A stretch of DNA of 60,670 nucleotides, from NCBI GenBank assembly GCA_020850775.1, contig JADZEA010000103.1, forward strand, positions 1 through 60,670. The letters run 5' to 3'. The notes under the pieces are model-generated. The model ran no database searches. It was not told the DNA's origin and was given only the letters and a program-made list of their open reading frames with translations. This DNA is from a bacterium. GTDB lineage: Bacteria > CLD3. Of the stretch, positions 4,905 through 60,670 are shown piece by piece; the stretch's first letter is position 1, and each line of letters opens with the position of its first letter. The position numbers and the translations under genes were made by a program.

Positions 4905-5000
4905 TTTCGCTAAGCGTAACTTTCGTCTTAACACGGATTTTTTCACTAACGTAAGCTCCGCCAAGAAGCGTGGATTCCGCAAAAATTTCAGTGAAAGTTA
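4905..5000. repeat. Intergenic repeat family B, two adjacent degenerate units
   Basis: 4958-4980 ccgccaagaagcgtggattccgc matches the reverse complement of 60466-60488 at 22 of 23 positions, and the flanks (cgtaag.., ..tttcagtga) also align. A weaker unit lies just upstream (gcgtaactttcgtcttaacacggattttttcact). A further degenerate copy is at 33017-33069. Confidence 0.5.
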
Positions 5001-32036: not shown

Positions 32037-32915
32037 TTAATTGTCAATTGTCAGGCGGAAGCTGACACTAAAAAAAATCAGTGTTACTAAGACAAAAACT
32101 GAAATTAACAAAGCCAAAAGTGTTTTTTTGTGGTTAATTTTGTTTGGTGAAAAGGCTAAAAGATTTCCGTCAGAGTCATAAATTACCTGGTAAGTTGGAA
32201 CGAGTAAAAAACTTGTAAAAAGTCCGCCGAGCAATCCGCCAACGTGTCCAAAATTATCGATTCCTGAAACAGAAAATCCAAAAAGCAAGTTAAAACCTGC
32301 AATAAAAAGTGCGTTGTTCAAACCCGATTTTCCAATGCTTCCAAACGAGTTTTTATTTTTCCCAAAAAATACGATTGATGCGCCAATTAATCCAAAAATT
32401 GAGCCGCTTGCTCCTGCTGAAATTGAAGTGTTAAAAGCGTAGGAAAGGATACTTCCTAAAAGTCCTGAAACAATGTAAATAATTGTAAAACAGATACTTC
32501 CATAAAAAGTTTCAATCTCTTTTCCAAGAATAAAAAGCGAGTAAGAATTTACGAGAAGGTGCAAAAAACCGATGTGGAGAAAAGTTGCTGTCAAAAACCT
32601 CCAAAACTCACCTTCAGTGATTAAAGGGTTGTGCTTTGCACCAAATTTTAGTAGCGTTTCGGTTGAAGTAGAACCACCTTCCAAAGTCATCAAAATCCAA
32701 ATCAAAATTATTACAGCAAGGAAAAATTTTGTGATTGGAGTGTTTTTTGAGCGAACTGCAGAAGAAAAAGGGTTTTGTTTTTGTTCAAAAATTTCTTTTT
32801 CCGGTTCTGAGGTTTGTTCTTTTTCCGGCGAAAATTTATAGTTACAACGAGGACATTTTTCAGTTTGTTCCAAGACTGTCAAGTTACAAACCGGGCATTT
32901 TTTAGTTGGAATCAT
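32037..32915 (-). CDS. Rhomboid-family intramembrane serine protease with an N-terminal zinc ribbon
   Basis: CPVCN...CPRCN ribbon. HIGFLHLLVN, catalytic GASGSIFGLIGA, and GHVGGLLGG. Confidence 0.85.
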   Translation of the reverse strand: MIPTKKCPVCNLTVLEQTEKCPRCNYKFSPEKEQTSEPEKEIFEQKQNPFSSAVRSKNTPITKFFLAVIILIWILMTLEGGSTSTETLLKFGAKHNPLITEGEFWRFLTATFLHIGFLHLLVNSYSLFILGKEIETFYGSICFTIIYIVSGLLGSILSYAFNTSISAGASGSIFGLIGASIVFFGKNKNSFGSIGKSGLNNALFIAGFNLLFGFSVSGIDNFGHVGGLLGGLFTSFLLVPTYQVIYDSDGNLLAFSPNKINHKKTLLALLISVFVLVTLIFFSVSFRLTIDN

Positions 32916-33016
32916 TGGCTTTCTTTAAATTTACACCTTGCAAATTTAATAAAAAACTTAGTCAATTGTTAAAAGATTTAGCAAGCGGAAAAAATAGTAA
33001 AACTTTTTAAAATTCT

Positions 33017-33135
33017 CACTGAAACCTTGCGAAAGCTAAAAAGGCGTTCCTTAAAAACCGTTTAACGCACAAATTTACAATAAAACAATTGTTGCAATTT
33101 TTGGTGAAGTTTTATAGCTTTAAGTCCAAAAGTCC
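33017..33135. repeat. Composite intergenic repeat: degenerate B unit (33017-33069) joined to an A unit (33062-33135)
   Basis: The A unit tttaacgcacaaatttacaataa...caattgttgcaatttttggtgaagttttatagctttaagtccaaaag aligns to 53287-53378 over ~70 nt with few mismatches and one ~10-nt indel. The B unit ctcactgaaaccttgcgaaagc...gtttaacgc resembles 60454-60496. Confidence 0.55.
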
Positions 33136-33227
33136 TGCAAAATAAACTGCAAAACAATTATTAAACAATTTTCAACCCTTTGCCCTTTGACGGCAATTTT
33201 CCTTTCTAAAAACCTCTGAAACTTACA

Positions 33228-33265
33228 GAAAAATTTTAGCCTTCAAATGCTTGCAATGAAGGCTA
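33228..33265 (-). terminator. Putative terminator after the RND pump gene
   Basis: Perfect 9-bp stem tagccttca (33237-33245) / tgaaggcta (33257-33265) with an 11-nt loop. On the minus strand it is followed by AAAATTTTT. Confidence 0.45.
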
Positions 33266-33277
33266 AAAAATTAAAAA

Positions 33278-46500: not shown

Positions 46501-46504
46501 TCAT
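40550..46504 (-). CDS. 1,984-aa T9SS-secreted multi-domain surface protein (FN3/Ig-like modules, internal ~410-aa duplication)
   Basis: Signal peptide MKNYLKVKGISALLFTAVFSINVGAQ. Thr/Asn/Gly-rich beta modules. FN3-like TWVNPT.NADGT...Y.V.A.D..GN. T9SS CTD at the end: NYPNPFNPNTKIKFGI...SGIYFARLEAGSFVKTQKMVLLK. Confidence 0.85.
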   Translation of the reverse strand: MKNYLKVKGISALLFTAVFSINVGAQVLDLTTTYVGGNGQSGNMFDVTTLNQVVITGFDCNLAIGTQTIEIYYKTGTIVGFDTTLAAWTLIATTTATATAANAPTPLPVNLNLALQPGQTYGFYITSTAQGTMMNYTNGTAVGNVYVSDTNLQIKEGYGVAYPFAGTFQPRIWNGTIHYTAGPPQNYVVLLAPQTLNGNALPTSNVNYNLTAYNYGALSDSYNLSVSGNTFPTTFWLNGNQITNTGNISAGANLVFNVQVSVPAGTPIGFTDVATVTATSAGDPTVSDFSTVNTLSGDITPPGTASNVACNLNTNGTIDITWVNPTLNADGTVLTDLASINVLRSADNLNFTLLGNVTAPNQTFTDNSPLNGANYYTVAAVDLSGNVGAYATSSQCNVVANSGGPDAFGHVWFSSTGGTIPATFFNIATLGTALGVYGDDNQDALNLPWSFPFYTNSYTSCQVSTNGYITFGAVATPYWNQPIPTVGDPENCIFAFWDDLIVNQGTGEIYYYNDAANNRFVIQWNNVPRLAEQTNLNTFQMILYPNGKIDYNYQTLTSTSLTEATIGIEDSTATDGLQVAYNSPFLQSNLSVVITADAPPFITHTPLGNTTNVTNPYTVTAQIFDSGTVISADLFWRINSTGTYTQVPMTNTTGINYTAQIPAQTNGTYVEYYLVAIDDSSDVTTHPTNAPTNVHSFVISLTLPPDNLVATSNVDLAVPLTWQIPNVVAPQFKQNQNIFAYTSNGNVPFGFNNASGNVATKFFLAQNKGLETVEITFLEGVKTNYTVSLYGFGAGEKPGKLLGILGKGVTSGKNETIKFSLKEAVRLSNGKFFVVLTQEDENLVSLASEVQSEIPANTFFVSGKNTDNWQSFESLNLAFIPQIKILTKETSAFARFNGIAEKISNSPKADKLEKGKNIASYVVKNAQKINVKPISLNDFLKKALPNGKNNTNQIATLGLNSYKIYRSTLASNLIPPTATYQINQTTSPLIISYLDNDPVLANGTEYFYVVTSIFVDNVSGQIVESLPSNIASATPNDVLAPASPTGLTSTLNTGNGVDLTWVNPTTNADGTPLNDLASIKVYRGASAFGTPVLLTTLSSSNQTYTDGNPANGANFYFVTALDVEGNESALSASSQTNVVAASGGPDLYGHTWVSSLNGAVSFSFVDVSTNPASQNQNLTDDSFSQVTLPWAFPLYNDTFTTMFIGSNGYVNFDAGSSSLGGPGGLAFPNAQQPNGMISIFWDDLNPGSGGQVWYYADPNLPRVIIQWNQVPAFGGSVPMTMEIILWQDGTIEFQYLDIDENDATFCSVGIENLAATDGLQVINDDVFLQDQLAVWFTSEDNFPPSVVNLTNQNDTDIHNQNFPVWAKVTDTLSGVQADSVELFWKLASNTTWNNVPMTAAANDSFYAQIPAPNAFDVVIEYFISATDSDTGENTAYFPYNPTNGTGTPYSFEIRLIPPGTLNAESLVPNHIPLAWGQPGENGIEIKYDDGTSEFQSILPNSPPGINSPGPAIFISKFDIATQTQISGNAQLNSAKVFIDNGALPASTYKVKIYGWDTVTNVPGALLTELGPFTQTTSGSFVNFDFVNPVTGIGFAIGSGAFGIGVEQIGSDPISLGGDTSLNPPYVFNVNTHFIQGTGGNWAPIETLAPIYGQIIPMIRCFVEPLAVVAPVVNSPKAEIFGKKLSKGGNEINLNPSWNIVSYKLYKLNGAALNSEEVVTNGSVIFTGTTQNYDDFSVTNPNQYSYAATVVYDVNGTNLESHPGNLVVATPGIATGTPNIVANEVNFGVILVTQPSAANLVVKNTGTGILSISGMTFGTTNPLNAQFTNQPTFPLTVGVGDSVLVELTVFPMSIGNLTSTLEIANNTTATPNYVVNLIADVTDAIENGENEIPKAFSLEQNYPNPFNPNTKIKFGIPARAFVKLTIYNALGQVVKSLVNGNLEAAYHVFEWNGTDAKGRSVASGIYFARLEAGSFVKTQKMVLLK
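42140..43393 (-). repeat. Internal protein-module repeat, copy 2 (aa ~1038-1455)
   Basis: LAPASPTGLTSTLNTGNGVDLTWVNPTTNADGTPLNDLASIKVYR...NGANFYFVTALDVEGN...ASGGPDLYGHTWVSS...LPWAFPLY...GSNGYVNF...SIFWDDL...IQWNQVP...VGIENLAATDGLQV...VELFWKL...VPMT...FYAQIPAP...EYFISATDS. Colinear with copy 1. Confidence 0.7.
44390..45613 (-). repeat. Internal protein-module repeat, copy 1 (aa ~298-705 of the surface protein)
   Basis: ITPPGTASNVACNLNTNGTIDITWVNPTLNADGTVLTDLASINVLR...NGANYYTVAAVDLSGN...NSGGPDAFGHVWFSS...LPWSFPFY...STNGYITF...FAFWDDL...IQWNNVP...IGIEDSTATDGLQV...ADLFWRI...VPMT...YTAQIPAQ...EYYLVAIDD. Confidence 0.7.
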
Positions 46505-46545: not shown

Positions 46546-48021
46546 TTACAAAACATTTTTACTTGAGTGGAAGTTTTTATTTCCAATTCCGACGTTTACG
46601 TTTCTAAATCTTGTCGGAGAACTTCCGTGAGACATTTCGGCAATTTGCATTGGCTGACCTTTTCCGCAGTTGTGAACGCCCCAAAGTGTCCAGTAATTTT
46701 CGTTACAAATTGCATCACAGGAATTCCAAAACTCAGGTGTAATTCCCTGGTAAGAACAGTTTTTCAGCATCGCACCTTTTTTACCGTTTTTGATTTCCCA
46801 ACCGATTTCAGTCCCGAACTCAAAATTCAGCCTCCACTGGTCAATGCTCCAGCACTTGTTTGTTTCCATAAAAATCCCTTCTTCCGTGTCTGAAACTAAG
46901 TTTTCAAATTCCCAATCTCCCGGCATTAAACTAAGGTTTGTAATCCTGACGATTGGAATGTTGCTCCAACCTTGAGCACGATTGTTTCCGCTGGATTCTT
47001 CGGCACCGATTTCGTGAGCTGTTTCTCTGTTGAACTGGTAACCAACTAAAATTCCGTCTTTTACCAAATGCCAACGTTTAGCACGAACTCCGTCGTCGTC
47101 GTAACCGATTGTAGCAAGCCCGTTTGGAACTGTTGAATCACAAACTAAATTTACAATTTCCGAACCGTAGCGAAAGTTGTTCAGTTTTTCGGTTGTCGCA
47201 AAACTCATTCCTGCGTAGTTTGCTTCCATTCCCAAAACTCTGTCAAGTTCCGTAGCGTGTCCGACAGATTCGTGGATTTGCAAAGCCATTTGGGTGCCGT
47301 CAAGAATTACATCTTTTTTACCTTCCGGACATTCTTTTGCTGTTAAAAGTGCGATTGCTTCTTCGCGGACACGTTCAGCATTTTCCAAAAGCGAAAGCCC
47401 CGGAATCAGTTCGTAACCCATTGACATAAATTGTCCGCGGAAAGAATTTGGGAAAGAGCGAATTTGAACGTCGTTGTTTCCGATTGCAGTTGCAGAGTAA
47501 CCGACGCCGCTACGCATTAATTTTTGGTCAATAAAAGTTCCTTCCGAAGTTGCAAGCCACTGATGTTCACAAGTAAAATCCATTCCGATAACAGTTCGTT
47601 TAATCAGTTCTGACTTTCGTAAAACTTCGTCAATTTTGTGCATCAAAGCGAGTTTTTCATAAATCGGAACTGTAAAAGGGTCAATCAAAAAAGGAGTTTG
47701 CCATTTTTCGTTGTAAACAGGTTCTTTGACGAGTTTTACGTTTTGTTTTTTTAGTAGTGAGCTTGCTTTTGCGATTTTTACGGCAAGCGTAGAAATTCTT
47801 TGGATTTCTTCGTTTGTAAGAAGGTTAGAGCTTGCAAATCCCCAGGAACCGTTTGCAATCACTCTAACTCCAAAACCAATATTTTCGCTTGAGCTTGTTT
47901 CAGTAACTTTTCCTGTAGTAATTTCAAGCCCTTCATTTTTTGTCAAAATAATTCTGATGTCTGCGTAAGTTGCACCGAGTTTTGTCGCTGTGTCAAGTGC
48001 AAGTTGTGTGTAGTGTTTCAT
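46546..48021 (-). CDS. tldD: TldD metalloprotease
   Basis: HESVGHATELD metal-binding motif. TldD-type N-terminus MKHYTQLALDTATKLGATYADIRI. I placed the start at ATG 48021; the track ORF extends 23 codons further and overlaps the upstream gene. Confidence 0.9.
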   Translation of the reverse strand: MKHYTQLALDTATKLGATYADIRIILTKNEGLEITTGKVTETSSSENIGFGVRVIANGSWGFASSNLLTNEEIQRISTLAVKIAKASSLLKKQNVKLVKEPVYNEKWQTPFLIDPFTVPIYEKLALMHKIDEVLRKSELIKRTVIGMDFTCEHQWLATSEGTFIDQKLMRSGVGYSATAIGNNDVQIRSFPNSFRGQFMSMGYELIPGLSLLENAERVREEAIALLTAKECPEGKKDVILDGTQMALQIHESVGHATELDRVLGMEANYAGMSFATTEKLNNFRYGSEIVNLVCDSTVPNGLATIGYDDDGVRAKRWHLVKDGILVGYQFNRETAHEIGAEESSGNNRAQGWSNIPIVRITNLSLMPGDWEFENLVSDTEEGIFMETNKCWSIDQWRLNFEFGTEIGWEIKNGKKGAMLKNCSYQGITPEFWNSCDAICNENYWTLWGVHNCGKGQPMQIAEMSHGSSPTRFRNVNVGIGNKNFHSSKNVL

Positions 48022-48035
48022 TTTAAAAAAACTTC

Positions 48036-48674
48036 CTAAAGTATGATTTTTTTTTGAGCTAAAGCTAATTTCAAATTTTCCGCAAAACAATAAAAAGACT
48101 TTTTTACGTTGTAAAAATTTTGTGTTGGAAAACCGTCTGCAACAAGACCAAGCATAATTTTTGTGTTTTTTTCTCCGCTTCCGGCAAACTTGATTTTGCC
48201 GATTTCGTCAAGTTTTTCCAAGTAAGACTCTGACGATAAAACTTGTTCAAGTTTCTTTTGTGAAGAAGTTTCAATTTCACTAAGTTTATTTGAAAGTTCT
48301 TTTTTGTTTGCACAACACCAATTTTCAATTGCACTGCAAGGTATCATTTCTGCGAATCTGTTTTTTATGTTTTTTCTAATTTTTAGAATAATTTTATTGT
48401 TTGTTATGAAAATTTGAAAATTATTGAATTTTTCATCTGCATCAATGTGAAAGCAAAAAATACAATCTTTTTCTGTCTTTAAAGTTGCTAAAGCATACTG
48501 AATGAAATCATTGAGTTTAGTTTGATTAAAGATGTCGGAACCTAAAACATCTTTAAAAATTTCTTCAAACTCTGCCTGTTCCTGCCCTAAAAATTCTAAA
48601 GCAAGTTCAATAAATTTTTGTGTAACTTTTTGAGATGTTTTATCTTCTGTAAAAAAATAAATTTTCAATTCCAA
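48036..48674 (-). CDS. Small (~210 aa) protein, TOPRIM-like/DUF4276-like candidate nuclease partner of the upstream ATPase
   Basis: TTG starts at 48674 or 48668; the latter has GGAG 7 nt upstream and overlaps the ATPase TGA as TTGA. N-terminal strand plus acidic residues KIYFFTEDKT, later CIFCFHIDADE (DxD-like), then IPCSAIENW and a C-terminal KKSFYCFAENL. The family assignment is from memory of the pattern, not a search. Confidence 0.5.
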   Translation of the reverse strand: MELKIYFFTEDKTSQKVTQKFIELALEFLGQEQAEFEEIFKDVLGSDIFNQTKLNDFIQYALATLKTEKDCIFCFHIDADEKFNNFQIFITNNKIILKIRKNIKNRFAEMIPCSAIENWCCANKKELSNKLSEIETSSQKKLEQVLSSESYLEKLDEIGKIKFAGSGEKNTKIMLGLVADGFPTQNFYNVKKSFYCFAENLKLALAQKKIIL

Positions 48675-49915
48675 ACTCCGTCATAAAACAGAACATTAGC
48701 TAAAGAAATAATTTCAGTTTCAACCTTTTTAAAAACTTTTTCTAAATCTTTTCCTTTCAAATTTGAGAAAGCAAGTTTTTCGTTTGTACCAATTTTACAA
48801 AGCACAACCGATTTACCGAGTTCTTCCATTGAAACATATTTTAAATTATTGATAATATTATGGCTATGAGTAGTGATGAAAGCCTGTTTTTTTTGCTCGT
48901 AAATTTTCTTCAACAAATCTTCAACCATTTTAGGATGAAAGCCATTTTCAATTTCATCAATCAAAGGGATTTCGTTAAGCTCAACCTTGCTCAACAAGTA
49001 AACAAAGCGTTTTTGTCCCCAGGTCAGAACGTTATCAATTTTAATTTCCCTTTCTTTTTTTAAAAAAATACATTTTCCATCTCTAAATTTTCTGGATTTC
49101 ATAGAAATTTGGCTGCTACCAAAACTAATTTTGTAACTATCAAAAAATGGATAATCTTTACTAATTTTTTCTAAAAAGGAACTTTTAAATTCTAATTTAA
49201 GATTGAGAGGTTCTCTAAAATCTTTTGGCGGTCCTTGTTTATTAATAAAATCAGTTAAATCTTTAAGAATAATAAAACTAAATTCATTCATTTCTGCCTG
49301 GTTTTCTGTACCAGACCATTTTTCTTGTAATAAATTATTTTCAAAAGGAATGCTTCCTTTTTCAAAAAAATAAATAGTGAATGTTTTAATATTTTTCTCA
49401 AATAACAACTTTGTTTCAGAATTGTCTTCAACACCTCTTCCACAAAATTGCGGGAATTTTAAAAATTTCAATTGAGCAAAAACCTCATTGCTCAAATCTC
49501 TTAAAATATTTTGCAAATTAAAATCAATGCCTAAAGCAATCACGTTACCAACTAAATTTTCTCCATTTTTTAAAATCTTAAAGTTTTGTCCATTTTTTTC
49601 AATTGAAATTTTATCGTTTTCAATAGTGAAATTAATTGAAAAATCTAATTTCTCTCTCTTTGCCATAAAATTAGCTTCAAAATTTCCATTTTCCAACTCC
49701 CCTTTTGTCCTAAAATGAAAATCATTTTTTTCTTTCAGTTCATTAAAATTAAACGAAACACAAGCCTGCAAAATTTTTAGCAAAGTAGTTTTTCCACCAC
49801 CGTTTGGACCAATCAGTAAATTTATTCCTTCACCAAATTTTAACTTTTGGTTAACGATGATTTCATCTCCGTAATCGTTTGTAAAATTAATAATTTCAAG
49901 TTCTTCTAAAAACAT
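48665..49915 (-). CDS. ABC/SMC-type ATPase of the AAA_21/OLD-like class (no transmembrane or nuclease domain)
   Basis: Walker A LIGPNGGGKTTLL, long insertion, signature-like LTWGQKRFVYLL, Walker B IPLIDEIENGFHP, H-loop FITTHSHNI. ATG 49915 lies 4 nt after the pmbA stop and is preceded by AGGTAAGGG. Confidence 0.8.
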   Translation of the reverse strand: MFLEELEIINFTNDYGDEIIVNQKLKFGEGINLLIGPNGGGKTTLLKILQACVSFNFNELKEKNDFHFRTKGELENGNFEANFMAKREKLDFSINFTIENDKISIEKNGQNFKILKNGENLVGNVIALGIDFNLQNILRDLSNEVFAQLKFLKFPQFCGRGVEDNSETKLLFEKNIKTFTIYFFEKGSIPFENNLLQEKWSGTENQAEMNEFSFIILKDLTDFINKQGPPKDFREPLNLKLEFKSSFLEKISKDYPFFDSYKISFGSSQISMKSRKFRDGKCIFLKKEREIKIDNVLTWGQKRFVYLLSKVELNEIPLIDEIENGFHPKMVEDLLKKIYEQKKQAFITTHSHNIINNLKYVSMEELGKSVVLCKIGTNEKLAFSNLKGKDLEKVFKKVETEIISLANVLFYDGVWN

Positions 49916-49919
49916 TCCC

Positions 49920-51251
49920 TTACCTTTCAGTTTTGCTTGAAAAATGAAAATTTTTTACCTTGGCAGCAGGACAAACTAAACTTCCGTTTGCAAAAAAAAC
50001 TTCCTTTGACAAAAGCTCTACATTGTTCAAAACCCTGACCATACTGTCGGTAAAACGTAAATTTTTTACAGGTTTTGTGATTTTTCCGTTTTCTACAAGC
50101 CAAAGTCCGTCTCTTGTCATTCCTGTCAAAATCAAATTAAAATGGTCAAGCGTGTTCGTGTAGTGAAAATGAGTTACCAAAAGCCCGCGTTCCGTTGTCT
50201 CAATCATTTCCTGCAAACTTGAATTTCCACCATAAAATTTAACACTCGTTGGAAAAGGTCCCGCATTGTTTGGAAAAGGCAAAGCGTGTCCTGTTGACTT
50301 CGTTTGCATTTTTTGGGCGGTGTAACGGTCCTGAACCATCTCTTTTGCAACGCCTTTTTCAACTAATTTTACAGTTTTTTTAGGCATTCCTTCAAAATCA
50401 AAAGAAGTTCCCGGAAAAATTTCATCGTAAGGGTCTTCAAAAACCGTAACGTTTTCACCAAAAATTTTTTCTCCGAGTTTCCCACTCAAAAAACTTCTGT
50501 TTTCAAGAAAAGCCAAAGTTCCAAAAGCATTCCAGTTCAAGTAGCCTAAAATGTTTGCAAAAGCTGTTGGCTCAAGAATCACGTCGTAATCGCCTGCGTC
50601 AATGCTTTGCGGGTTTTGGCTACTCAAACATTTTTGAATTGCCGTTTCAGTTGTTTCCTGTAGTTTAATTTTTGAAACATCGTGAGCAGTTGAGTTTGCC
50701 CAACCGTAACTCGTTTCGGAATTAGTCGTCAGAGAAAATTCTGCGTTGGTTTTGTTGTGAAAGGCAAAGACGCCGTTTGAGTTTGCAACGCCAAAATTTG
50801 TGCTTGTTGTGGAAAAAATTCCCGCTGCCTGCAAACCTTTTGCTTGTGTTTTTCCAACTGAAAAAGCAATTGCTTCAGCACGTTCTTCCGGTGAAAAAGT
50901 CGCTGTGTTTTTGTAAAAAGAATGCGGAATTTTTTGGTAAACCTGTTTTTGCGGAAGTGGTAAAAAATCATCGTGTTCTTTTGAAAGCTCTAAAATTTCC
51001 ATCCCTTTTTTAATTGCAGTTTGGATTGTCTGGTCGTCAAAAGAATTTACGTCAACACGATTTGTTTTGCCATTTTTCACGAGTAAAATTGAAACCGAAT
51101 CACTTTTTTTTACAACATTTTGAGTAATAAAGTTGTTAGAAAACCTTGTTAGTGAATTTTCAAAATTTAAGTAAGAAATTTCTGTTTCTTCAGCGGGAGA
51201 ATTTTTTTTGATTTTTTCAGCTAACTCTGAAAATTTTTCTTCTGTAAGCAT
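49920..51251 (-). CDS. pmbA: PmbA/TldE, the TldD-partner protease subunit
   Basis: TldD/PmbA-family layout without the HExxxH motif. Conserved C-terminal block GLLVTHFHYTNTLD...TGMTRDGLWLVENGKI...NLRF. Confidence 0.85.
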   Translation of the reverse strand: MLTEEKFSELAEKIKKNSPAEETEISYLNFENSLTRFSNNFITQNVVKKSDSVSILLVKNGKTNRVDVNSFDDQTIQTAIKKGMEILELSKEHDDFLPLPQKQVYQKIPHSFYKNTATFSPEERAEAIAFSVGKTQAKGLQAAGIFSTTSTNFGVANSNGVFAFHNKTNAEFSLTTNSETSYGWANSTAHDVSKIKLQETTETAIQKCLSSQNPQSIDAGDYDVILEPTAFANILGYLNWNAFGTLAFLENRSFLSGKLGEKIFGENVTVFEDPYDEIFPGTSFDFEGMPKKTVKLVEKGVAKEMVQDRYTAQKMQTKSTGHALPFPNNAGPFPTSVKFYGGNSSLQEMIETTERGLLVTHFHYTNTLDHFNLILTGMTRDGLWLVENGKITKPVKNLRFTDSMVRVLNNVELLSKEVFFANGSLVCPAAKVKNFHFSSKTER

Positions 51252-52519: not shown

Positions 52520-53206
52520 CTAAAAAAACTTAGTTTTTTGGTAAGTTGCAGATTTTGAGTGAAAAGCATTTTCTCTTGTAATCCATTTTTTGGGTTCAAA
52601 GTTTGAGCTTAACAAATCCCGTAAAATGGAATTTTTTGTGTTAAACTCAATAAAATCAGTTTTCAAGAATGGGAAAATTCGTGTGTAGCCACTAATTTTT
52701 GCAAAGAAAAATTTATCTTTTTCAGGTAAAAAAACTGCTCCTTCAAAACCGTTTTCACCTTCCTGTAAAATTTCACGTTTTTCAAGCATTTTTGCCTGAA
52801 AAATATTGCCGACCTGAATAAAAAAAGGAAAAGAAGTTGCTAAATTAACCTTTTCAAAAAAGTAAGGAGTTGAGAAAAAAGTTCGCTCACAAAATGCAAA
52901 AAAACGGTCAGAGCTAAAGGCATAAATCAGGTAACTACCTTTTAAGATATTATTTTTATGAGAGATAAGAAGTGAATAACTAACTTCACGAAACCTAACA
53001 CCTTTAAACTTCAATTCGGCTGAAATTATTAAAATTTGAGCCTTTCCATCCGGAGTCAGGTCAAGAGTTAAGTTTGTGTTTTCTAATAGTTTTTGCCAAA
53101 AATTTGCGTTTGCCGTTCCAAGCAGGGTTACTTCCTTTACATTTTTTATCTCTGCTACGTAGTTAATTTTTTTAGCCATTTTAAAGAAACCAATCAATTT
53201 TTTCAA
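52520..53206 (-). CDS. Hypothetical protein (228 aa; possibly an acetoacetate-decarboxylase-like/DUF2071-like beta-cone fold)
   Basis: Long ORF directly upstream of pyrD (6-nt gap). The pattern TLLGTANANFWQKLL...ISAELKFKGVRFREVSYSLLI is only vaguely reminiscent of that fold. Alternative start at 53179. Confidence 0.45.
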   Translation of the reverse strand: MKKLIGFFKMAKKINYVAEIKNVKEVTLLGTANANFWQKLLENTNLTLDLTPDGKAQILIISAELKFKGVRFREVSYSLLISHKNNILKGSYLIYAFSSDRFFAFCERTFFSTPYFFEKVNLATSFPFFIQVGNIFQAKMLEKREILQEGENGFEGAVFLPEKDKFFFAKISGYTRIFPFLKTDFIEFNTKNSILRDLLSSNFEPKKWITRENAFHSKSATYQKTKFF

Positions 53207-53286
53207 GTAAAATTAGTAAAAAATTAAGTGGTTTGCTAAGAAATTTTTATTTGAGCAAAAGCATCTTTTTAGTCTCTGAAAAACCA

Positions 53287-53378
53287 TTTAACACACAAAT
53301 TTACAATAAGTAACCCAAAATAATTGTTGCAATTTTTGGTGAAGTTTCATAGCTTTAACCCCAAAAAAACACTTTCTA
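53287..53378. repeat. Intergenic repeat family A, copy 2
   Basis: tttaacacacaaatttacaataa-(indel)-aattgttgcaatttttggtgaagtttcatagctttaaccccaaaaaaacactttct aligns with 33062-33135 (same orientation) and with the reverse complement of 60612-60670. Confidence 0.55.
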
Positions 53379-53491
53379 AATTTTGTAAAATTGGTTTGTG
53401 TAATTTACGAGATGGAAAGGAGTGGTAAGTGTGAATAAAATTTAATCTTAGAGAAAAATGAATAAAAAACAAGAAATTAAAAATGCAGTTG

Positions 53492-53525
53492 TTTGTGTTG
53501 TAGGTGGACAGTTTCACAACACAAA
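53492..53525 (+). promoter_or_regulatory. Perfect 10-bp inverted repeat in the leader region of the giant ORF
   Basis: tttgtgttgt (53492-53501), 14-nt spacer, acaacacaaa (53516-53525). It ends 54 nt before ATG 53579, and no T-run follows. Confidence 0.4.
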
Positions 53526-53578
53526 GAACCATTTCATACAATGCTTAATCAAACTTCAACTTATTATTATTAATACCA

Positions 53579-56500
53579 ATGAAAATTAAAGATATTAGTC
53601 AGTATCGGACTTTCTACAAAGAGGAAGTAAACGGACACGGTGCAAACCGTGACGAACACTTTATTGGTGTAACTCACACAGACGGAGAAAATAAAAAGTG
53701 GGGATTTTTCAGCATTACTCATGGCGACAAGGAGAAACTTCAAACTGACGGCATCAGAGGATTTCTTGAAGGGTTTCTTGACATGGCAAGAGATGCACAG
53801 GCAGTTTATGAGTTTCTGCAAAACTCTGTTGATGCAAACAGCAGCAGGTTTGCAATGTTTTGGGGCAAAGACGAGCTTGATGGCAACGAATATTTACTTG
53901 TTCTCAACAATGGAAAACAATTTGACTTTGCTGCAGTTCGTTCAATCCTAAATGTTGGAGTTTCTACCAAGAACGCAGAGGAACACACAATCGGAAAGTT
54001 TGGAATTGGTTTCAAGTTGGCTCACAGATTAGTTGGTAAAGATAACGGACTTGATGAACTACTAAATAAAAATTATGGACCTATTTTATTCAGCTGGAAA
54101 AACTCAGAACTGAAAACCCTTTTTAATTTGAACGGTGAGGAGATTCAGCCAATTAAACAGAAATACAATCTTTCAAAAAATCAAGAATGGGAAATATCAG
54201 GAAATGAACCCTGGTTGTTCAAAATTTTAATCACAAATTTTCCGTGTCAACCCAATGAAAAAACCATAAAGGACATACAATACAATGAAATCGCTCCTCC
54301 ATTTGCCTTAGAAGAAATAAAAGTCCTTTCAAGATGGTTGAACAAATATTCTTCTGAGATTCCTGTGGAGGAATTTCAAGAAGGTTCTTTGTTTTTTATT
54401 CGCTTAGGTGAGGACAAGAAAAATCATTTGCAAGATGCAAATCTCAAAGAGGGTTTGAGATTTTCCCTTTCTGTTTTGAATCACACATCGCAACTCAACA
54501 CAAGAGGTTTAAAACACATGAACCTTAACAAAGAGGAACTTGAAAGTGTTGATTTGAAATTTTTGCCTTTCACCATTTCAAAGGAAAAGGACAAGGACAA
54601 ATATAATTGGATTCGTTTCGGAAAGACCGAAAACCTTTCGGAAGATGAATTGAAGTTGGCTGAGAAAGATTCAGACATTCAATTCCTGATGGGTTATTCA
54701 GACTTTGAAAAAGCAGAAGAAATATTTAACAATGCACCAAACTTCTATTTGTATTTTCCTTTGAGTGAGGAAAAACACAATCTAAAGTTCATTATTCATT
54801 CAAATGCTTTCTACAAGGCAACGCACAGAACTTCGTTGCACATTGGAAGTCAGGAAAAATTTGGCATTAACGAGCGACTGCTTTACACATTCGCAAAAAA
54901 AACTCTTACAGATTATCTTACCACTTGTGCAACTTCAATAAAGGAAGCAGACAAAGAAATATTCAAAGAGGTTTATGCAAACTTGCTTCTTTCAGATGAA
55001 AGCAAAGAGCCAAACCGACATTGGGTAAACAAACCATTGGTTGAACCGATTCATAAATTCTTAAAGGAAAATATTCCTGTAAAGTCAAATGAAGGATTTG
55101 AGTTAGTAAGTGATTCCAGCAAAGTCAAAATCAAGACAACAAAAATTCCGATTGATTTAAACGACCTTCATTGGTTTTATTGGAGCGACAACAAAATTTT
55201 GGAATTACCAGCCATAACCAAGTTAGGAATTTCAACTTTTTCAATAGTTGACTTTCTAAAAACACCAAAGGCATTTTCAGAAATCAACAAATTTATTGGT
55301 AGCAAAAGTGAAAACGCTTTTGCTACACTTACTGAAATTGACATTGCCATTGTTAGCGAAAAGTCAGAGGAGGTTTTGAAAGAAAATTTGTCAAAGATTA
55401 AAGTGTTTGAATTTGAGGATGGGCAATTTTTAAGCATTGATGATTTAAAAACGAATGCTGAATATTCCTCTCACTTAATTCAATTCAGTAAGATTGATGA
55501 AATTTCTATTGAATTACGAAAAGCAGGTTTCATTCTTTCTAAATGTTCGCTTTCACAATACGAATCGCTTTACAAGTTTCTTAACAGTGTTCAGATACTT
55601 GAATATTTTGAATCGGCTGAGTTGATTAAATTGCTCAGTAGTGGTTTTGAGAAAACACATTTCTTAATTGAGGAAAAGAAGAAAATATTTGCGACATTAG
55701 AAGCACCAAACAGAAATGAAAATGCCGAGACAAGGAACAAGCGAATGAAACTTCTGAGATTGTTCAACAACAAACTTGGTTACACAGTTGAACTTGGACA
55801 GTTGATTAAAGACACGCAAAAATCGTGGCTAAAAACTTTCTGCATTGACGAGAAGGAACACTTTGAAGAATTAGACAGATACTTAGTTCCAGACGACAAA
55901 ACAGTTTTTACAAGTATTGTAATTCCATTGTGGGATAAATTCACAGAAGATAAGACAGGAACCATCAGAAGTAATCCTTCAGACTTCTTTGCGGAGATTG
56001 TAAAACTTCAACAAGAAACCAATCAAAAAGAAACGCTTTCAAACAGAAAGCACATTTTGATTGACAACAAATTTCACGAAGCAAGCGAAGAAATATTTTA
56101 CTCTTCTGATTTGAATTCTTTGTCTGACGAAGATTACAAAAAGGCAGAAGATTTATTTGCAAAATATTTTCAGAAAAAATTTCCCGACAAAAGAACGCTG
56201 CCCTTTCTGAATCAACAACCGTTTCTTTTGCAGGTTTCCGGTTTGACAAAATTGAACTTGTTGTCAGAAACAGAAATCACTTCTGACAAAGTTGAAACTT
56301 TGGCAAAAGCATTTGCGACAGCAAAGCTTGAATTGTTTGAGAAATTTATTTTGCAACCCAAAGAAGCAAAAATAATTTTCAGACCAATTTCAGAGAATGA
56401 AAAACAAATCGGCAACTTACAGTCAGACGACTTGAAAAAATATGTTTCAAAGAATCATTCTGAATTGGTTGTTGCACCAACAATAAAATCGCTGAGTGAT

Positions 56501-59500
56501 TTCATCTATTTAAAAGACAGTGAACTTTCAAAATATTTAATCACTGAATTTGATTTCAAAGATGAAAGCAGAAAACATTCGCTTTGCGGAATTATTTTGT
56601 CTGAGGACGACAATGTAAAATTTGAGTTCATCAGCAAGCATCCGAATCTCACTGTAGAACAAGAAGACGAAAATTCAGTTAGTCAGTTAAGCGATATTGT
56701 AAAAACAGCTTTGTTTATTAGCGATGGACAAAAGGCAACTGAGATTTTAACTTCAAAAATTCTATTCAAGACAGCTGAAGGAAAAACATTTTCTCTTAAC
56801 AACCTTCAAGGATTAAACGCAAACAATATTTATTTTGGAGAGAACAACGAACACAGTATTCAACTTTCTGAATTGTTTAAGCAAGACGACTTGAACAAAG
56901 TTGCTTTTGTAGAAAAAGTTTTGGAATCACTTTCTGAAATTATTTCTATTGAGAAACCAAAGCTCCTTTCACTTTTCAATCTCAGCAATGAAGCCGATAA
57001 GAAAGATATTTTTCACAAGCTGAACGCTGACTACAAAACAAACGGACACCTTTCAAATGCTGCACAACTTGCTTTCATTCTTCTTTACAGAAAATTTGCT
57101 GACGAAAACATTTCAGTAAAAAGTTTCAAGATTAAGTCAGGCGAAACAACTCAAAGCATTGACGGCAGTTTTGGAATTTCAGTTTCAGATTTCGGTTTGT
57201 TTAAAAGTGAATGTTACTTACCCCAAGAATTTTCGGGCATAAAAGACATTCTCAAACTCTCTTCAAACAAACCAGTATTTGAAGTTGACAACACAAAACT
57301 TTATTTGCATCCTCTTGTTGTTGGCAGTTCATTTTCAAGTCCGCAGTTAAAGGAAGGATTGAGTGAAGATGAACAGATTGAACTTCTTGATTTCTTAGCT
57401 ACAAACTTTAAAGGGAATGAAATTTTACAATTCAACCAAAGTTGGGAAAATGTATTCGGCATTCTTTTAAATGACAAAGTTATTTCACGCCACCGCCTAT
57501 CACCTGTTGAAGATTTGCCAGAACATTTGGCAAGATGGAGGATAGACAAAAACGATGAAAGACGAAGGACTAAAGCACAGGTTCTAACTGCAATAGGAAT
57601 TCACACAAGAATATCTGAGATACATAAGTTGAGAAGGTTTTTGATTGAAAACAACACTAATGAAACTTTTGAATTGAAAGAGATAGAAAAAATTTCCGTT
57701 CAACTTTTGGCAAACACACTTCAAGTGTGTAAAAATTATAATTCAGATTTTTCTTTTGGTTTTTCTGACAAACCATTTGAAATTATTAAAGAAATTACAA
57801 GAAAAGTTTTGATTCAAAACTTAACAACTTATCCTTTGCCCGTATTGAATCAAGAATTGAAATACTCTTTGGAAATTCTAAATGCTAATCAGGATTATTA
57901 TTTGGACTTCACCGCAAGTCAAAATATTTCTTCAAATAGCGTTGACAAATCCGAGTTGGTAAAATCAATTCCTCAAAACATTTATGACGCAATTCTATTT
58001 GTTGATTCTCCTGAATTAAAATCCATTCTGAAAAAGGTTGAAATAATTCCTGTTACCGATTTTGAAAAACTTGAAACGCTTTCGCAAGAATGGAATGAAA
58101 AATTTTATTTGGAATGGAAAGAAAAGCATCCCACTTTGAAAATAAATCTTGTGGATTTTATTCCCATCAGACTTTATGTAGGCGATAATTATATTCAAAA
58201 TTCTGAAAGTCATGAAATTATTAGAAACGAGAATGTCCTTTTTATCTCAAAAAAGCATTCTTTTGAAGAAATAAAATTTCAGATTAACGAAAGGGGATTG
58301 CTTACAGAATCTGAACTGAATGAACTTACGACATTGTTTGAGCACTATCAAATACAGTTTAGAGAATTATTTGAGAACTATATTGCAGATGATGAAATTA
58401 GAAATAAACTTGAAGCGATAAAAAAAGAAGCAGCACAATTAGCACAAAAGAAAGAACTTAAAGAAAGCTTGTGTAAGGAGAAATATACTTATAAATGGTT
58501 TACCGATTTCTTAGAACTTGAGCTAATAAATAATTCAGAAGCAGATTCAACTTCACCTGAAAAGGAAATTTCATTTTTCGCTGCTGCAAAGGAAGAAGAT
58601 TCTGAAAGAATAATTATCCTTCGTGACCCAAACAGAACTGTTACCCCAACCTTAGAATTTTGTGCTGATTTTCATGCAAAGTTTTATAGAGATACAGGAA
58701 GTCCTATTGATGTGAAAATTCAAGGCGTTTCAAAAAAGGGGCAAACTGTTTTAGCAATTCTTGCAAATCCAAATGACTTACGAGGCATTGACCTTAAGAA
58801 TGAAATTAAGAGGGTAGAACTTTTGTTTTCCCGTTCAGTTGATTTGCTGCGAAGATTATTAAACTCTTTCAAGAGATTAGGTGATAACAATCATTGGGAT
58901 CCAAAGTTCAGTATCAAAGATAATTTAACAGAGAACATTAAATTCATTTTTGGACCGCCAGGAACAGGAAAAACAACAACAATTGCAAATCGTGCAATTG
59001 AAATAATGCAGAATGTTCCACAAGCAAAAATTCTAATTCTTACACCGACCAACAAAGCAGCAGATGTTGTTGCTCATAAAATTTTTACCAATTCAAGAGA
59101 CGACAATGATTGGCTTGTCCGCTATGGTGCAACATTTAATGAGGAGTTGATTCAAAACGAAATTTTGAAAGATGCCAATTCGTTTTTCTTTTCTGATTAC
59201 AGCAGATGCACGGTTGTAGCAACGATTCAAAGATTCCCTTACGAGGAATTCATTGATAAAATTGTTTCGGAACAGGAAATCAAAATCCGAATGTGCGATG
59301 CTGATTGGGATTACATAATTTTTGATGAGGCATCAATGATTCCGGTTACTTACATTGCTTTTGGTCTGATGAAGTGTTTTGAAAAAACAGTTGGTTCACA
59401 AACGAAATTTTTAATTGGTGGCGACCCGAAACAAATTCCACCAGTGATAACAATTTCAGATGAAGATTTGCCAGCCGATTTTGAGAAGGAAGAAAATATT

Positions 59501-60421
59501 TACTCAATGATTGGACTTGATAGTTTCATTGAGAAGGAACAAGCAATGATTCCAAAGTTTGGAGATAAAATAGAAAACTTAAAAACTCAATACCGAAGCA
59601 CTGAAAACATTGGAAAACTTTTCAGTCATTTTTCTTATGGCGGAAAGCTATCTCATCATCGTTTAAATGAAATAAAATCCTTGCCGAAAGATTTTGCAGC
59701 TCTTGGAATAAAACCAATAGCTCTCATTCGCTTTCCAGTGAACTTAGATGAATCAATTTACAAACCTGAGAAGTTGAAACAAAGCCCTTATCATCTTTAC
59801 TCAGCACTTCTGATTTTGGAATTGATAAGAAAGTTTGATTCTTCTCTCACCGACAAAGATGAAGTTTGGACAGTAGGAATTATTTGTCCTTACCGTTCAC
59901 AAGCAACGCTTGTAAACAAAATGATTGAATCGCTAAACCTAAATCACAAATTGAAAGTGATAACCGATACTGTTCATGGTTTCCAAGGTGATGAATGTGA
60001 TTTGGTTTTCTTTCTGATGAATCCGTCAAGCTATTCTATTTCATCCGATGTGAGATTGTTCTTGCACAAACACTATTTGATAAATGTTGCAATTAGCAGA
60101 GCAAAAGATTACTTGATTATTCTTTATCCAGACGAAAATACAGAAGGAATTAAAAACCTTATAAAGATTCACAAGGACCATCAGGAAAGTATAGAATATT
60201 TGATTGAAAACCTTTTAGGAATCAAACTGACTGAAATTACAGTTCAATCATCTGACATTGAACAAAAACTGTTCGAAGAAAAAAATCACATTGAGAAAAA
60301 TATTTTCACTAACAAACATCAACTTGTTAATGTTTACCATACGGCAGAGAAAAAATATTTAGTGAGAGATAGTTCAACAGCAATAGACATTCAAATCAGA
60401 ACTGTTTCTTCGCCTTTATAG
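53579..60421 (+). CDS. 2,280-aa fusion protein: N-terminal sacsin/Hsp90-type GHKL ATPase module, ~1,300-aa unassigned middle, C-terminal Upf1/Dna2-type SF1 helicase
   Basis: GHKL: N-box YEFLQNSVDANS, LVLNNGKQF, IGKFGIGFKLAH, then GSLFFIRLG and FYLYFPLSEEKHNLKFIIHSNAFY (sacsin SRR-like). Helicase (aa ~1785-2185): I FGPPGTGKTT, Ia ILILTPTNKAAD, II YIIFDEASM, III LIGGDPKQIPPV, IV LKTQYRS, V VHGFQGDECDLVFF, VI INVAISRAKDYLIILY. Uninterrupted ORF with TAG stop. Confidence 0.85.
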   Translation: MKIKDISQYRTFYKEEVNGHGANRDEHFIGVTHTDGENKKWGFFSITHGDKEKLQTDGIRGFLEGFLDMARDAQAVYEFLQNSVDANSSRFAMFWGKDELDGNEYLLVLNNGKQFDFAAVRSILNVGVSTKNAEEHTIGKFGIGFKLAHRLVGKDNGLDELLNKNYGPILFSWKNSELKTLFNLNGEEIQPIKQKYNLSKNQEWEISGNEPWLFKILITNFPCQPNEKTIKDIQYNEIAPPFALEEIKVLSRWLNKYSSEIPVEEFQEGSLFFIRLGEDKKNHLQDANLKEGLRFSLSVLNHTSQLNTRGLKHMNLNKEELESVDLKFLPFTISKEKDKDKYNWIRFGKTENLSEDELKLAEKDSDIQFLMGYSDFEKAEEIFNNAPNFYLYFPLSEEKHNLKFIIHSNAFYKATHRTSLHIGSQEKFGINERLLYTFAKKTLTDYLTTCATSIKEADKEIFKEVYANLLLSDESKEPNRHWVNKPLVEPIHKFLKENIPVKSNEGFELVSDSSKVKIKTTKIPIDLNDLHWFYWSDNKILELPAITKLGISTFSIVDFLKTPKAFSEINKFIGSKSENAFATLTEIDIAIVSEKSEEVLKENLSKIKVFEFEDGQFLSIDDLKTNAEYSSHLIQFSKIDEISIELRKAGFILSKCSLSQYESLYKFLNSVQILEYFESAELIKLLSSGFEKTHFLIEEKKKIFATLEAPNRNENAETRNKRMKLLRLFNNKLGYTVELGQLIKDTQKSWLKTFCIDEKEHFEELDRYLVPDDKTVFTSIVIPLWDKFTEDKTGTIRSNPSDFFAEIVKLQQETNQKETLSNRKHILIDNKFHEASEEIFYSSDLNSLSDEDYKKAEDLFAKYFQKKFPDKRTLPFLNQQPFLLQVSGLTKLNLLSETEITSDKVETLAKAFATAKLELFEKFILQPKEAKIIFRPISENEKQIGNLQSDDLKKYVSKNHSELVVAPTIKSLSDFIYLKDSELSKYLITEFDFKDESRKHSLCGIILSEDDNVKFEFISKHPNLTVEQEDENSVSQLSDIVKTALFISDGQKATEILTSKILFKTAEGKTFSLNNLQGLNANNIYFGENNEHSIQLSELFKQDDLNKVAFVEKVLESLSEIISIEKPKLLSLFNLSNEADKKDIFHKLNADYKTNGHLSNAAQLAFILLYRKFADENISVKSFKIKSGETTQSIDGSFGISVSDFGLFKSECYLPQEFSGIKDILKLSSNKPVFEVDNTKLYLHPLVVGSSFSSPQLKEGLSEDEQIELLDFLATNFKGNEILQFNQSWENVFGILLNDKVISRHRLSPVEDLPEHLARWRIDKNDERRRTKAQVLTAIGIHTRISEIHKLRRFLIENNTNETFELKEIEKISVQLLANTLQVCKNYNSDFSFGFSDKPFEIIKEITRKVLIQNLTTYPLPVLNQELKYSLEILNANQDYYLDFTASQNISSNSVDKSELVKSIPQNIYDAILFVDSPELKSILKKVEIIPVTDFEKLETLSQEWNEKFYLEWKEKHPTLKINLVDFIPIRLYVGDNYIQNSESHEIIRNENVLFISKKHSFEEIKFQINERGLLTESELNELTTLFEHYQIQFRELFENYIADDEIRNKLEAIKKEAAQLAQKKELKESLCKEKYTYKWFTDFLELELINNSEADSTSPEKEISFFAAAKEEDSERIIILRDPNRTVTPTLEFCADFHAKFYRDTGSPIDVKIQGVSKKGQTVLAILANPNDLRGIDLKNEIKRVELLFSRSVDLLRRLLNSFKRLGDNNHWDPKFSIKDNLTENIKFIFGPPGTGKTTTIANRAIEIMQNVPQAKILILTPTNKAADVVAHKIFTNSRDDNDWLVRYGATFNEELIQNEILKDANSFFFSDYSRCTVVATIQRFPYEEFIDKIVSEQEIKIRMCDADWDYIIFDEASMIPVTYIAFGLMKCFEKTVGSQTKFLIGGDPKQIPPVITISDEDLPADFEKEENIYSMIGLDSFIEKEQAMIPKFGDKIENLKTQYRSTENIGKLFSHFSYGGKLSHHRLNEIKSLPKDFAALGIKPIALIRFPVNLDESIYKPEKLKQSPYHLYSALLILELIRKFDSSLTDKDEVWTVGIICPYRSQATLVNKMIESLNLNHKLKVITDTVHGFQGDECDLVFFLMNPSSYSISSDVRLFLHKHYLINVAISRAKDYLIILYPDENTEGIKNLIKIHKDHQESIEYLIENLLGIKLTEITVQSSDIEQKLFEEKNHIEKNIFTNKHQLVNVYHTAEKKYLVRDSSTAIDIQIRTVSSPL

Positions 60422-60445
60422 AAAAAGCCGTTGTTTGCAATGCTC

Positions 60446-60496
60446 CCGTAAAACCCGTGAAACTTGCGGAATCCACGCTTCTTAGCGGGGTTTACG
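60446..60496. repeat. Intergenic repeat family B copy (inverted relative to 4950-4995); may double as a terminator hairpin
   Basis: gtaaaacccg (60448-60457) ... cggggtttac (60486-60495) can pair with one mismatch, enclosing tgaaacttgcggaatccacgcttcttag, and is followed by gctttt. The core 60466-60488 is the reverse complement of 4958-4980 (22/23). Confidence 0.5.
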
Positions 60497-60611
60497 CTTT
60501 TAAAACAAAAAAAAGAGCAAACTTTTCAGCTTGCCCTTTTCATAAAAAAAACTGTTAACAATTGATACCTTGTTCCCAAATTCGTGTTTTTTGTGAGTTT
60601 TACCCTTGTTC

Positions 60612-60670
60612 AGGAAAGTGTTTTTGGGTTAAAGTGTTAGAAACTTTGCAAAAAATTGTTTTTTCTGAAA
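60612..60670. repeat. Intergenic repeat family A, copy 3 (inverted relative to copies 1 and 2; cut by the window end)
   Basis: The reverse complement ...caattttttgcaaagtttctaacactttaacccaaaaacactttcct aligns to 53322-53378, lacking ~8-10 nt (tttttggtga) present in copies 1 and 2. Confidence 0.5.

Follow-up and report, generated by a model that had tools for sequence, protein, structure and literature searches.

What kind of protein carries a sacsin-like ATPase at one end and an Upf1-like helicase at the other, and whether it serves immunity or housekeeping, are questions raised by a gene on contig JADZEA010000103.1 (assembly GCA_020850775.1; GTDB lineage Bacteria; CLD3). The window analyzed here is the whole of this 60,670-nt contig (positions 1 to 60,670, forward strand), and the gene is an open reading frame (ORF) of 2,280 codons (table 1). 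An initial annotation described it as a stand-alone fusion of a GHKL ATPase and a superfamily 1 (SF1) helicase, separated by a long unassignable region, and as matching no described system. We conclude that the gene probably belongs to the Tiamat (TmtA) family as a helicase-ended form and encodes a single-chain anti-phage or anti-mobile-element ATPase. Because the protein is a helicase-ended variant of the Tiamat family, the claim of an undescribed system is not supported; what is new is the architectural variant, while Tiamat as a kind of system is already known.

The ORF is real and is read in one uninterrupted frame, and every motif listed in the initial annotation is present in its translation where it had been placed. 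The ATG start is backed by conservation, as homologues all open with MKIKDI and nucleotide similarity to the closest relative sets in 14 bp 5' of this codon. At least 120 full-length helicase-ended homologues (31–82% identity, ∼2,260–2,350 aa) are found, annotated in databases as "AAA domain-containing protein" and nothing more. In an alignment of 28 of full length, conservation is highest in the head (aa 1–480) and the helicase.

The PADLOC model of TmtA, PDLC03970, matches the ORF with E=5.4e-194 (645.7 bits), aligning aa 1–1655 with profile positions 1–1436 of 1552. This amounts to the N-terminal 73% of the protein, and the middle that had been called unassignable lies within it. Pfam and NCBIfam place no domain between aa ∼160 and ∼1780, so the earlier statement that no domain is recognizable there holds for these two databases but not for PADLOC. 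Tiamat is said to have been validated by Millman et al. in 2022 as a single-gene anti-phage system. A February 2026 review attributes it to the same authors and calls its mechanism "unknown" or "largely uncharacterized" (PMC12926258), a survey places it with the single-gene systems that have a PD-(D/E)xK domain (bioRxiv 10.1101/2024.10.26.620412), and a PADLOC "Tiamat" call has already been reported in a Flavobacterium defense island (PMC12781566). Our literature search returned no paper linking Tiamat with MORC, GHKL, HATPase, or sacsin, and none pairing "Tiamat" with "TmtA."

Comparison with canonical TmtA proteins locates the point at which the helicase-ended form departs. Canonical relatives P0142 (E=8e-295), P0157, and P0166 (both E=0) match PDLC03970 as far as profile position ∼1514–1537 and have no helicase. 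The C-terminus of P0166 is Pfam NOV_C, a related "VVKSAK...P.EW" end motif is present in P0151, P0157, P0158, P0163, and P0195, and a diverged version is present in P0142. NOV_C/DUF3883 has been described as a domain of the restriction endonuclease (REase) fold (PMC3710099), and HmaA has been proposed to need its NOV_C domain against phage T4 (PMC11232893). The window protein has no Pfam match to NOV_C and its match to PDLC03970 halts at position 1436. When aligned by hhalign to the canonical C-terminal region, homology ends at aa ∼1572 (probability 98.4%), and nothing beyond that residue corresponds to the canonical nuclease-like part (probability ≤3%). We also considered whether the helicase form, its conserved tail included, keeps a vestige of NOV_C, and hhalign found none. 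By these profile comparisons, aa 1–1572 are homologous to canonical TmtA and are followed by a linker and an Upf1-like helicase where a NOV_C-type or DarT module sits in other members.

The third C-terminus is DarT, an ssDNA (single-stranded DNA) thymidine ADP-ribosyltransferase that ends P0169, P0194, and P0200 (Pfam E 1e-20 to 1e-26). These proteins match PDLC03970 with E∼1e-193 to 1e-208 over profile positions 1–650/739. Their overlap with the scaffold of the window protein covers aa ∼481–808 (P0169) or ∼481–675 (P0194 and P0200), and the distal scaffold differs. P0200 also has an HD-like motif, "HDIGK," after DarT. An exhaustive phmmer search with aa 480–1655 returned just 95 relatives among 1.84 billion representatives, indicating that the family is rare. 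A rough motif classification separates about 24 helicase-ended representatives (∼2,230–2,340 aa; head, scaffold, and helicase), about 9 canonical ones (∼1,600–1,900 aa; head, scaffold, and a nuclease-like or unknown end), 3 that are DarT-ended (1,589–1,945 aa; head, proximal scaffold, and DarT), and 38 short proteins or fragments. The helicase-ended form is the most diverse in this search, which was seeded with a query of that form.

The head has most of the features expected of a GHKL domain of the sacsin/MORC type, in line with the sacsin/Hsp90-type domain that the initial annotation had proposed. Pfam HATPase_c_3 (31.1 bits, cutoff 25) and NCBIfam P_loop_sacsin, the sacsin ATP-binding domain (58.8 bits, cutoff 50), both match above cutoff, and the Pfam SACS model also matches. 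The motifs are YEFLQNSVDANS (aa 77–88), LVLNNGKQF (107–115), and IGKFGIGFKLAH (138–149), followed after the lid by GSLFFIRLG (269–277) and FYLYFPLSEEKHNLKFIIHSNAFY (389–412). Residues E78, N82, and D85 of motif I (E-x3-N-x2-D) are invariant in the 28 homologues and align to catalytic E35, Mg-binding N39, and D42 of MORC2, respectively; glycines G139, G142, and G144 of the Gly-rich ATP lid (G-x-x-G-x-G) are likewise invariant. In GHKL enzymes the Asp of motif II (D-x-G) contacts adenine N6. Here motif II reads N110-N-G112, with Asn N110 (nt 53906–53908) where MORC2 has D68; the Asn is invariant in the aligned helicase-ended homologues and is also present in canonical P0166. Use of ATP by the head is likely, and N110 could signify altered nucleotide specificity or a head that only binds nucleotide.

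The C-terminal ∼700 aa are modeled as a complete Upf1-like SF1B helicase with an accessory barrel. SF1 motifs I, Ia, II, III, IV, V, and VI occur in order (GPPGTGKTT, TPTNKAAD, IFDEASM, GGDPKQIPPV, QYRS, HGFQGDECD, and NVAISRAKD), and most key residues are invariant in the 28 homologues, among them GPPGTGKTT (Walker A), D1916/E1917 (motif II), Q2004/R2006 (motif IV), and R2174 (motif VI). The assignment to an Upf1/Dna2-type SF1 helicase made in the initial annotation is borne out by Pfam AAA_12 (E=1e-22), by AAA_11 and AAA_19 (E range to 1e-12), and by PDB profile matches to IGHMBP2, Upf1, Sen1, and Dna2. The AlphaFold2 (AF2) model of aa 1560–2280 has a predicted local distance difference test score (pLDDT) of 86.5 and a predicted template modeling score (pTM) of 0.81, and shows long helices, a barrel, and two RecA domains. 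Foldseek matches this model with probability 1.0 to Setx/Sen1, Dna2, Upf1, IGHMBP2, nsp13, and ZNFX1 (E 1e-25 to 1e-20 over ∼660–770 columns for Setx, Dna2, Upf1, and IGHMBP2). The predicted barrel ahead of RecA1 fits the 1B barrel seen in helicases of the Upf1 type. The tail that follows the helicase core has four invariant residues (E2228, H2247, N2251, and D2270).

Distribution of the family is that of a defense gene. All named homologues are from Bacteroidota (Flavobacterium, Pedobacter, Chryseobacterium, Chitinophaga, Flavisolibacter, Pontibacter, Draconibacterium, and Mucilaginibacter), and none of 11 distinct homologue loci is syntenic with the window. The 82%-identical relative shares nucleotide similarity only from 14 bp ahead of the ATG to 23 bp before the stop codon. 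Neighbors of relatives include type I restriction-modification (R-M) genes (HsdM/S/R), MmeI-type R-M, PglZ with SNF2 and a methylase, a DrmA-like DEAD/MZB protein with SNF2, Mrr, DndB, a Wadjet-like DUF3584 protein, and integrases. Nonsyntenic location, relatives in defense islands, and the lack of core-genome behavior agree with the defense role first suggested for the gene. A phage or plasmid origin was rejected, as there are no relatives in IMG/VR viral contigs or PLSDB plasmids.

Within these loci, one neighbor recurs. A PDC-S68-type RecD/Pif1-like helicase (∼1,220–1,270 aa) is encoded within 10 kb of the TmtA-helicase gene in 7 of 11 distinct loci (table 1); the neighbor in locus L002 is identified as PDC-S68 by PADLOC at E=0 and the others by tblastn with the L002 protein. 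Gene order varies between loci, yet the two genes are usually adjacent, with gaps of 11 bp (L002), 6 bp (L005), 2 bp (L010), and 135 bp (L011), or a 4-bp overlap (L008). In L008 and L003, the two genes are inserted between hsdS and hsdR of a type I R-M operon. Pfam finds no domain in the first ∼570 aa of the S68-type protein. Conversely, the close clade formed by the window gene and those in L001, L013, and L014 (at least 72% identity) is without an S68-type gene, although two of these contigs have short flanks, and L009 is also without one. A tblastn search of the 60-kb window with the S68 protein found only the helicase of the ORF itself (23% identity, E=3e-6). The description of the gene as standing alone is therefore apt for the window and the close clade and inapt for the family, as most relatives are paired with PDC-S68.

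This pairing raises the strongest alternative, namely that the TmtA-helicase and PDC-S68 form a two-gene system, and that the genes of the window and its close clade are orphans that lost their partner and either depend on other host factors or function at a reduced level or in an altered way. The high frequency of S68-like neighbors and the five loci in which the genes abut or overlap speak for it, as does adjacency that is kept despite varying order, a pattern typical of functional linkage. But PDC-S68 stands in PADLOC as a separate single-gene candidate, and five loci lack it, four of the close clade and L009, with none found in the 60-kb window. The ratio of nonsynonymous to synonymous substitution rates (dN/dS) between the window gene and the relative with 82% identity is 0.15 overall, with 0.065 in the head, 0.08 in the helicase, and 0.21 in the scaffold. 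Because the ratio is low and all modules are constrained, the solitary gene is maintained by purifying selection. Intact partnerless genes with strongly constrained catalytic modules argue for autonomous function, and we consider the two-gene explanation unlikely.

A second alternative places the effector in the middle of the protein, where a cryptic nuclease or other catalytic domain within the ∼1,100-aa scaffold would act and the helicase would merely feed it substrate. The initial annotation had looked for an effector in this region. An AF2 model of aa 430–1629, built from an alignment of 34 sequences, has a mean pLDDT of 86.6 and many small alpha/beta modules; its pTM of 0.45 indicates several domains whose relative placement is uncertain. 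That so large and well folded a region matches no known fold, and that it has a few invariant polar residues (e.g., E586, K700, E1311, and R1352), is compatible with concealed catalysis. Searches for it are negative: there is no Pfam domain in the scaffolds of 21 sequences (the window protein and 20 homologues), PDB sequence searches with both halves are empty, Foldseek of the whole model against PDB gives nothing at E≤1e-3, with generic helical solenoids as best matches (template modeling (TM) score about 0.1), and a self-comparison by hhalign reveals no internal repeats. Neither PD-(D/E)xK, HNH, phospholipase D (PLD), nor HEPN domains, nor any other catalytic family, are detected in the scaffold by Pfam, NCBIfam, PDB sequence search, or whole-model Foldseek. 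A hidden nuclease was rejected on these grounds, with the model itself being confident, and across the entire protein the earlier observation of no recognizable nuclease stands for Pfam, NCBIfam, PADLOC, and Foldseek.

More telling is that the same region occurs in canonical TmtA alongside its own nuclease-like C-terminus, and its proximal part alongside DarT. Because the middle accompanies other C-terminal effectors, the evidence points to a role as scaffold or sensor with the helicase in the effector slot. The scaffold is also the least conserved part of the protein by dN/dS. A hidden effector in the middle is thus unlikely, and as a full explanation of the protein, with the helicase reduced to an accessory, we regard it as quite improbable. 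Part of the scaffold has a separate existence. Homologues of aa ∼835–1173 form the C-termini of ∼460–530-aa proteins (P0132, P0135, P0141, P0146, P0148, P0155, P0156, P0159, and others among the 38 short proteins or fragments), and in both that were scanned, P0132 and P0135, the N-terminus is the membrane hairpin of GldL_N (gliding-motility GldL). Since it recurs in a separate GldL_N family, this sub-domain is an autonomous module that can be tethered to a membrane. The genomic context of the GldL_N family comes from one locus (L012) that is too short to interpret.

The least likely alternative, a housekeeping factor for nucleic-acid quality control or repair, or a sacsin-like chaperone, draws on the neighboring pyrD and pmbA/tldD genes, a GC content that matches the genome, and the housekeeping roles of eukaryotic relatives of the modules (sacsin, Upf1, Sen1, and IGHMBP2), but is very hard to reconcile with a family that is rare and patchy, occupies another locus in each genome examined, with homology that stops at the edges of the gene, is consistently amid R-M, BREX, or DISARM genes and integrases, and has a validated defense family as its best match.

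Several points weigh against a helicase-ended Tiamat protein acting as a single-chain defense ATPase. We infer anti-phage activity of this form from two things, TmtA homology and genomic context, and the canonical architecture used for comparison is that of the PADLOC profile and relatives. Because the Asp of motif II is replaced by an invariant Asn, ATP binding and hydrolysis by the head are likely and not assured. A helicase alone would be an unusual effector; known Upf1-like defense proteins, such as Mokosh and Nhi, pair the helicase with a nuclease. The structural search of the scaffold was made at the level of the whole model, which leaves room for a divergent catalytic domain. Lastly, the setting of the window gene among pyrD, pmbA, and tldD is not a classical defense island.

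With these points in mind, a mechanism can be proposed for the helicase-ended Tiamat protein. The GHKL enzymes MORC, Hsp90, and MutL work as ATP-driven dimerizing switches, and the head would act likewise as an ATP-dependent dimerizing switch or clamp. The scaffold would recognize or hold some feature of the invader's nucleic acid, probably ssDNA or an intermediate of replication or transcription, given that each of the three effectors targets nucleic acid and that the target of DarT is ssDNA. Once activated, the C-terminal helicase, predicted to move 5'–3', would execute the response by translocating on, unwinding, or stripping foreign ssDNA or RNA, such that replication is blocked or the nucleic acid is exposed to other nucleases. 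In most relatives this would probably be done jointly with the neighboring PDC-S68 helicase and surrounding R-M, BREX, or DISARM genes. In the clade of the window genome, the protein would work without an S68 partner.

A broader proposal, which we offer as a tentative possibility, is that the Tiamat body serves generally as a chassis that senses foreign DNA, single-stranded or replicating, and that at least three effectors (the nuclease-like NOV_C module, DarT, and the Upf1-like helicase) are plugged into it. Under this proposal, the helicase form would be motor-only and nuclease-free, acting by unwinding or stripping, and usually serving with PDC-S68 as an accessory module inserted in operons of type I R-M, BREX-like, and DISARM-like systems.

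Table 1. Positions of the TmtA-helicase gene, its parts, and flanking features in the window, and of S68-type genes in homologue loci (AF2, AlphaFold2 model)
Feature	Sequence	Position (nt)	Strand	Evidence or remark
Helicase-ended TmtA (Tiamat-like) ORF, complete, 2,280 aa, ATG start	Window	53579..60421	+	At least 120 full-length homologues; PADLOC TmtA
Conserved head, aa 1–480: GHKL (Bergerat) ATP-binding domain (aa ∼67–160) and conserved extension	Window	53579..55018	+	Pfam, NCBIfam, MORC2 alignment
Middle scaffold, aa 481–1572, common to canonical TmtA	Window	55019..58294	+	PADLOC profile, AF2, hhalign
Sub-domain, aa ∼835–1173, also a separate C-terminal domain of GldL_N proteins	Window	56081..57097	+	phmmer relatives
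Long-helix linker, aa ∼1573–1655, divergence point of helicase- and nuclease-like-ended TmtA	Window	58295..58543	+	AF2 helices, hhalign breakpoint
Beta-barrel, aa ∼1663–1751, ahead of RecA1	Window	58565..58831	+	AF2 strands, structural alignments
Upf1-like SF1B helicase core, aa ∼1780–2190, motifs I–VI intact	Window	58916..60148	+	Pfam, PADLOC, PDB profiles, Foldseek
Conserved C-terminal tail, aa 2191–2280, no family match	Window	60149..60418	+	Alignment; lower-confidence model
Leader, 372 bp, 73.4% AT (window 65.1%)	Window	53207..53578	+	
Dispersed intergenic repeat, imperfect, about 40 nt, upstream copy	Window	53340..53378	+	
Same ∼40-nt repeat, downstream inverted copy	Window	60607..60650	-	
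228-aa ORF, TTG start	Window	52520..53206	-	6 bp upstream of pyrD, divergent from TmtA-helicase gene
S68-type gene	L002	6333..9989		
S68-type gene	L005	6341..9994		
S68-type gene	L008	16846..20592		
S68-type gene	L010	6255..9998		
S68-type gene	L011	6059..9865		
S68-type gene	L003	2270..6022		
S68-type gene	L007	24527..26942		

In the window, the gene is solitary among housekeeping genes. It is divergent from the pyrD block, as first described, with the block consisting of the 228-aa ORF, which has no Pfam or PADLOC match, and pyrD; whether it is monocistronic can be followed only to the end of the window, 249 bp past the stop codon. The leader is AT-rich, and the palindrome reported in it consists of two perfect 10-bp arms (53492–53501 and 53516–53525) that are split by a 14-nt loop, overlapping a sigma-70-like -35 hexamer at 53513. 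This inverted repeat is weakly nonrandom, being equalled in 25 of 500 shuffles. Inverted repeat copies do bracket the gene, about 200 bp outside the ORF ends, but the element is only imperfect and ∼40 nt in size; partial copies are at 33052–33125 and 32117–32137. We rejected the idea of a mobile cassette bounded by this repeat, as the 82% relative shows no homology beyond the gene borders and has no copy of the repeat in its flanks. No tRNA genes or Rfam families are found in the window.

Other repeated sequences occur nearby. A ∼75-nt element (53279–53360) recurs in two blocks of 93–95% identity at 33052–33125, within the intergenic region 32916–33277, and a 25-nt GC-rich hairpin-like element (60464–60488) recurs at 96% identity at 4958–4982, after a gene that ends at 4887. 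These short dispersed intergenic sequences may be REP- or MITE-like. Contigs end within ∼250–820 bp downstream of the gene both in the window (60422–60670) and in L001 (16853–17675). That the contigs of the window and the 82% relative both end just downstream suggests that assemblies break at repeated or variable sequence beside the gene.

Farther upstream, a two-gene insert (48036–49915, - strand) lies between tldD (46546–48090) and pmbA (49920–51251), some 4 kb away from the gene studied here. The insert encodes a 416-aa AAA_21/ABC-type ATPase that matches PADLOC models PDC-M25A, AriA, AbiLi, GajA, and PtuA (E 1e-16 to 1e-9) and an overlapping 212-aa ORF with no family match, and has the lowest GC of the window (0.278). 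This pair, the one defense-like pair near the gene, is probably a separate small defense or abortive-infection module. Beyond it, a 1,984-aa protein (40550–46504, - strand) has NIDO, Ig-like, FlgD_ig, and type IX secretion system (T9SS) sorting (Por_Secre_tail) domains, in a stretch with a GC of 0.41–0.43 versus ∼0.34. Its C-terminal T9SS domain supports an origin of the window in Bacteroidota.

That the head and scaffold recur with three different C-termini acting on nucleic acid leads to the hypothesis that the body is a sensor or switch and the C-terminus is the effector. The pattern of effector swapping and the pairing with S68 make the unexplained mechanism of Tiamat testable. They also raise the questions of how a nuclease-free helicase gives immunity, and why it is so often accompanied by another helicase, PDC-S68, in R-M, BREX, or DISARM operons. 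Annotation pipelines of the PADLOC type probably label such genes plainly as "Tiamat," masking the difference in architecture.

Compared with known systems, the protein combines features that are elsewhere apart. It shares with Mokosh a helicase of the Upf1/COG1112 class, and MkoA (PDLC03920) is its best C-terminal PADLOC match (E=9e-39; 3e-40 with the C-terminus alone). Mokosh has been hypothesized to act in an ATP-dependent manner on phage RNA or RNA/DNA replication intermediates (bioRxiv 10.1101/2022.05.11.491447). The match is, however, confined to the helicase part (profile positions 822–1072 of 1112), and Mokosh itself is without a GHKL head or TmtA scaffold. Pfam detects no PLD or kinase domain in the protein or in the nine upstream ORFs scanned (37.5–53.2 kb), and membership in Mokosh (type I MkoA and MkoB; type II MkoC) or Nhi was rejected for want of a PLD, kinase, or nuclease domain. 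Nhi/Hhe nuclease-helicases and Dna2, a top structural match, likewise have an SF1B Upf1/Dna2-like motor in a large single chain, but theirs comes with a recognizable nuclease and none is detected in the window protein; the match to the Hhe model is negligible (E=0.095).

Eukaryotic sacsin, plant NO VEIN, and MORC share the Bergerat head with its E-x3-N-x2-D motif I and G-x-x-G-x-G lid, and NO VEIN, according to its Pfam description, joins a similar head to NOV_C as canonical TmtA does. The window protein differs from these in having no CW, coiled-coil, HEPN, or DnaJ regions, in the Asn of motif II, in its fused helicase, and in its prokaryotic defense context. The DarT-ended relatives have the same head and proximal scaffold but a different distal scaffold, and their effector is DarT rather than a helicase. 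Closest of all is Tiamat itself, with a homologous GHKL head, a scaffold of ∼1,100 aa that is homologous throughout, and likewise a giant single polypeptide; defense islands are the setting of the relatives, and housekeeping genes that of the window gene. In place of the C-terminal NOV_C/DUF3883 or "VVKSAK...P.EW" module (profile ∼1437–1552), the window protein has ∼700 aa of linker, 1B barrel-like domain, helicase, and tail, making it ∼600 aa longer, and unlike canonical TmtA most helicase-ended members are paired with PDC-S68.

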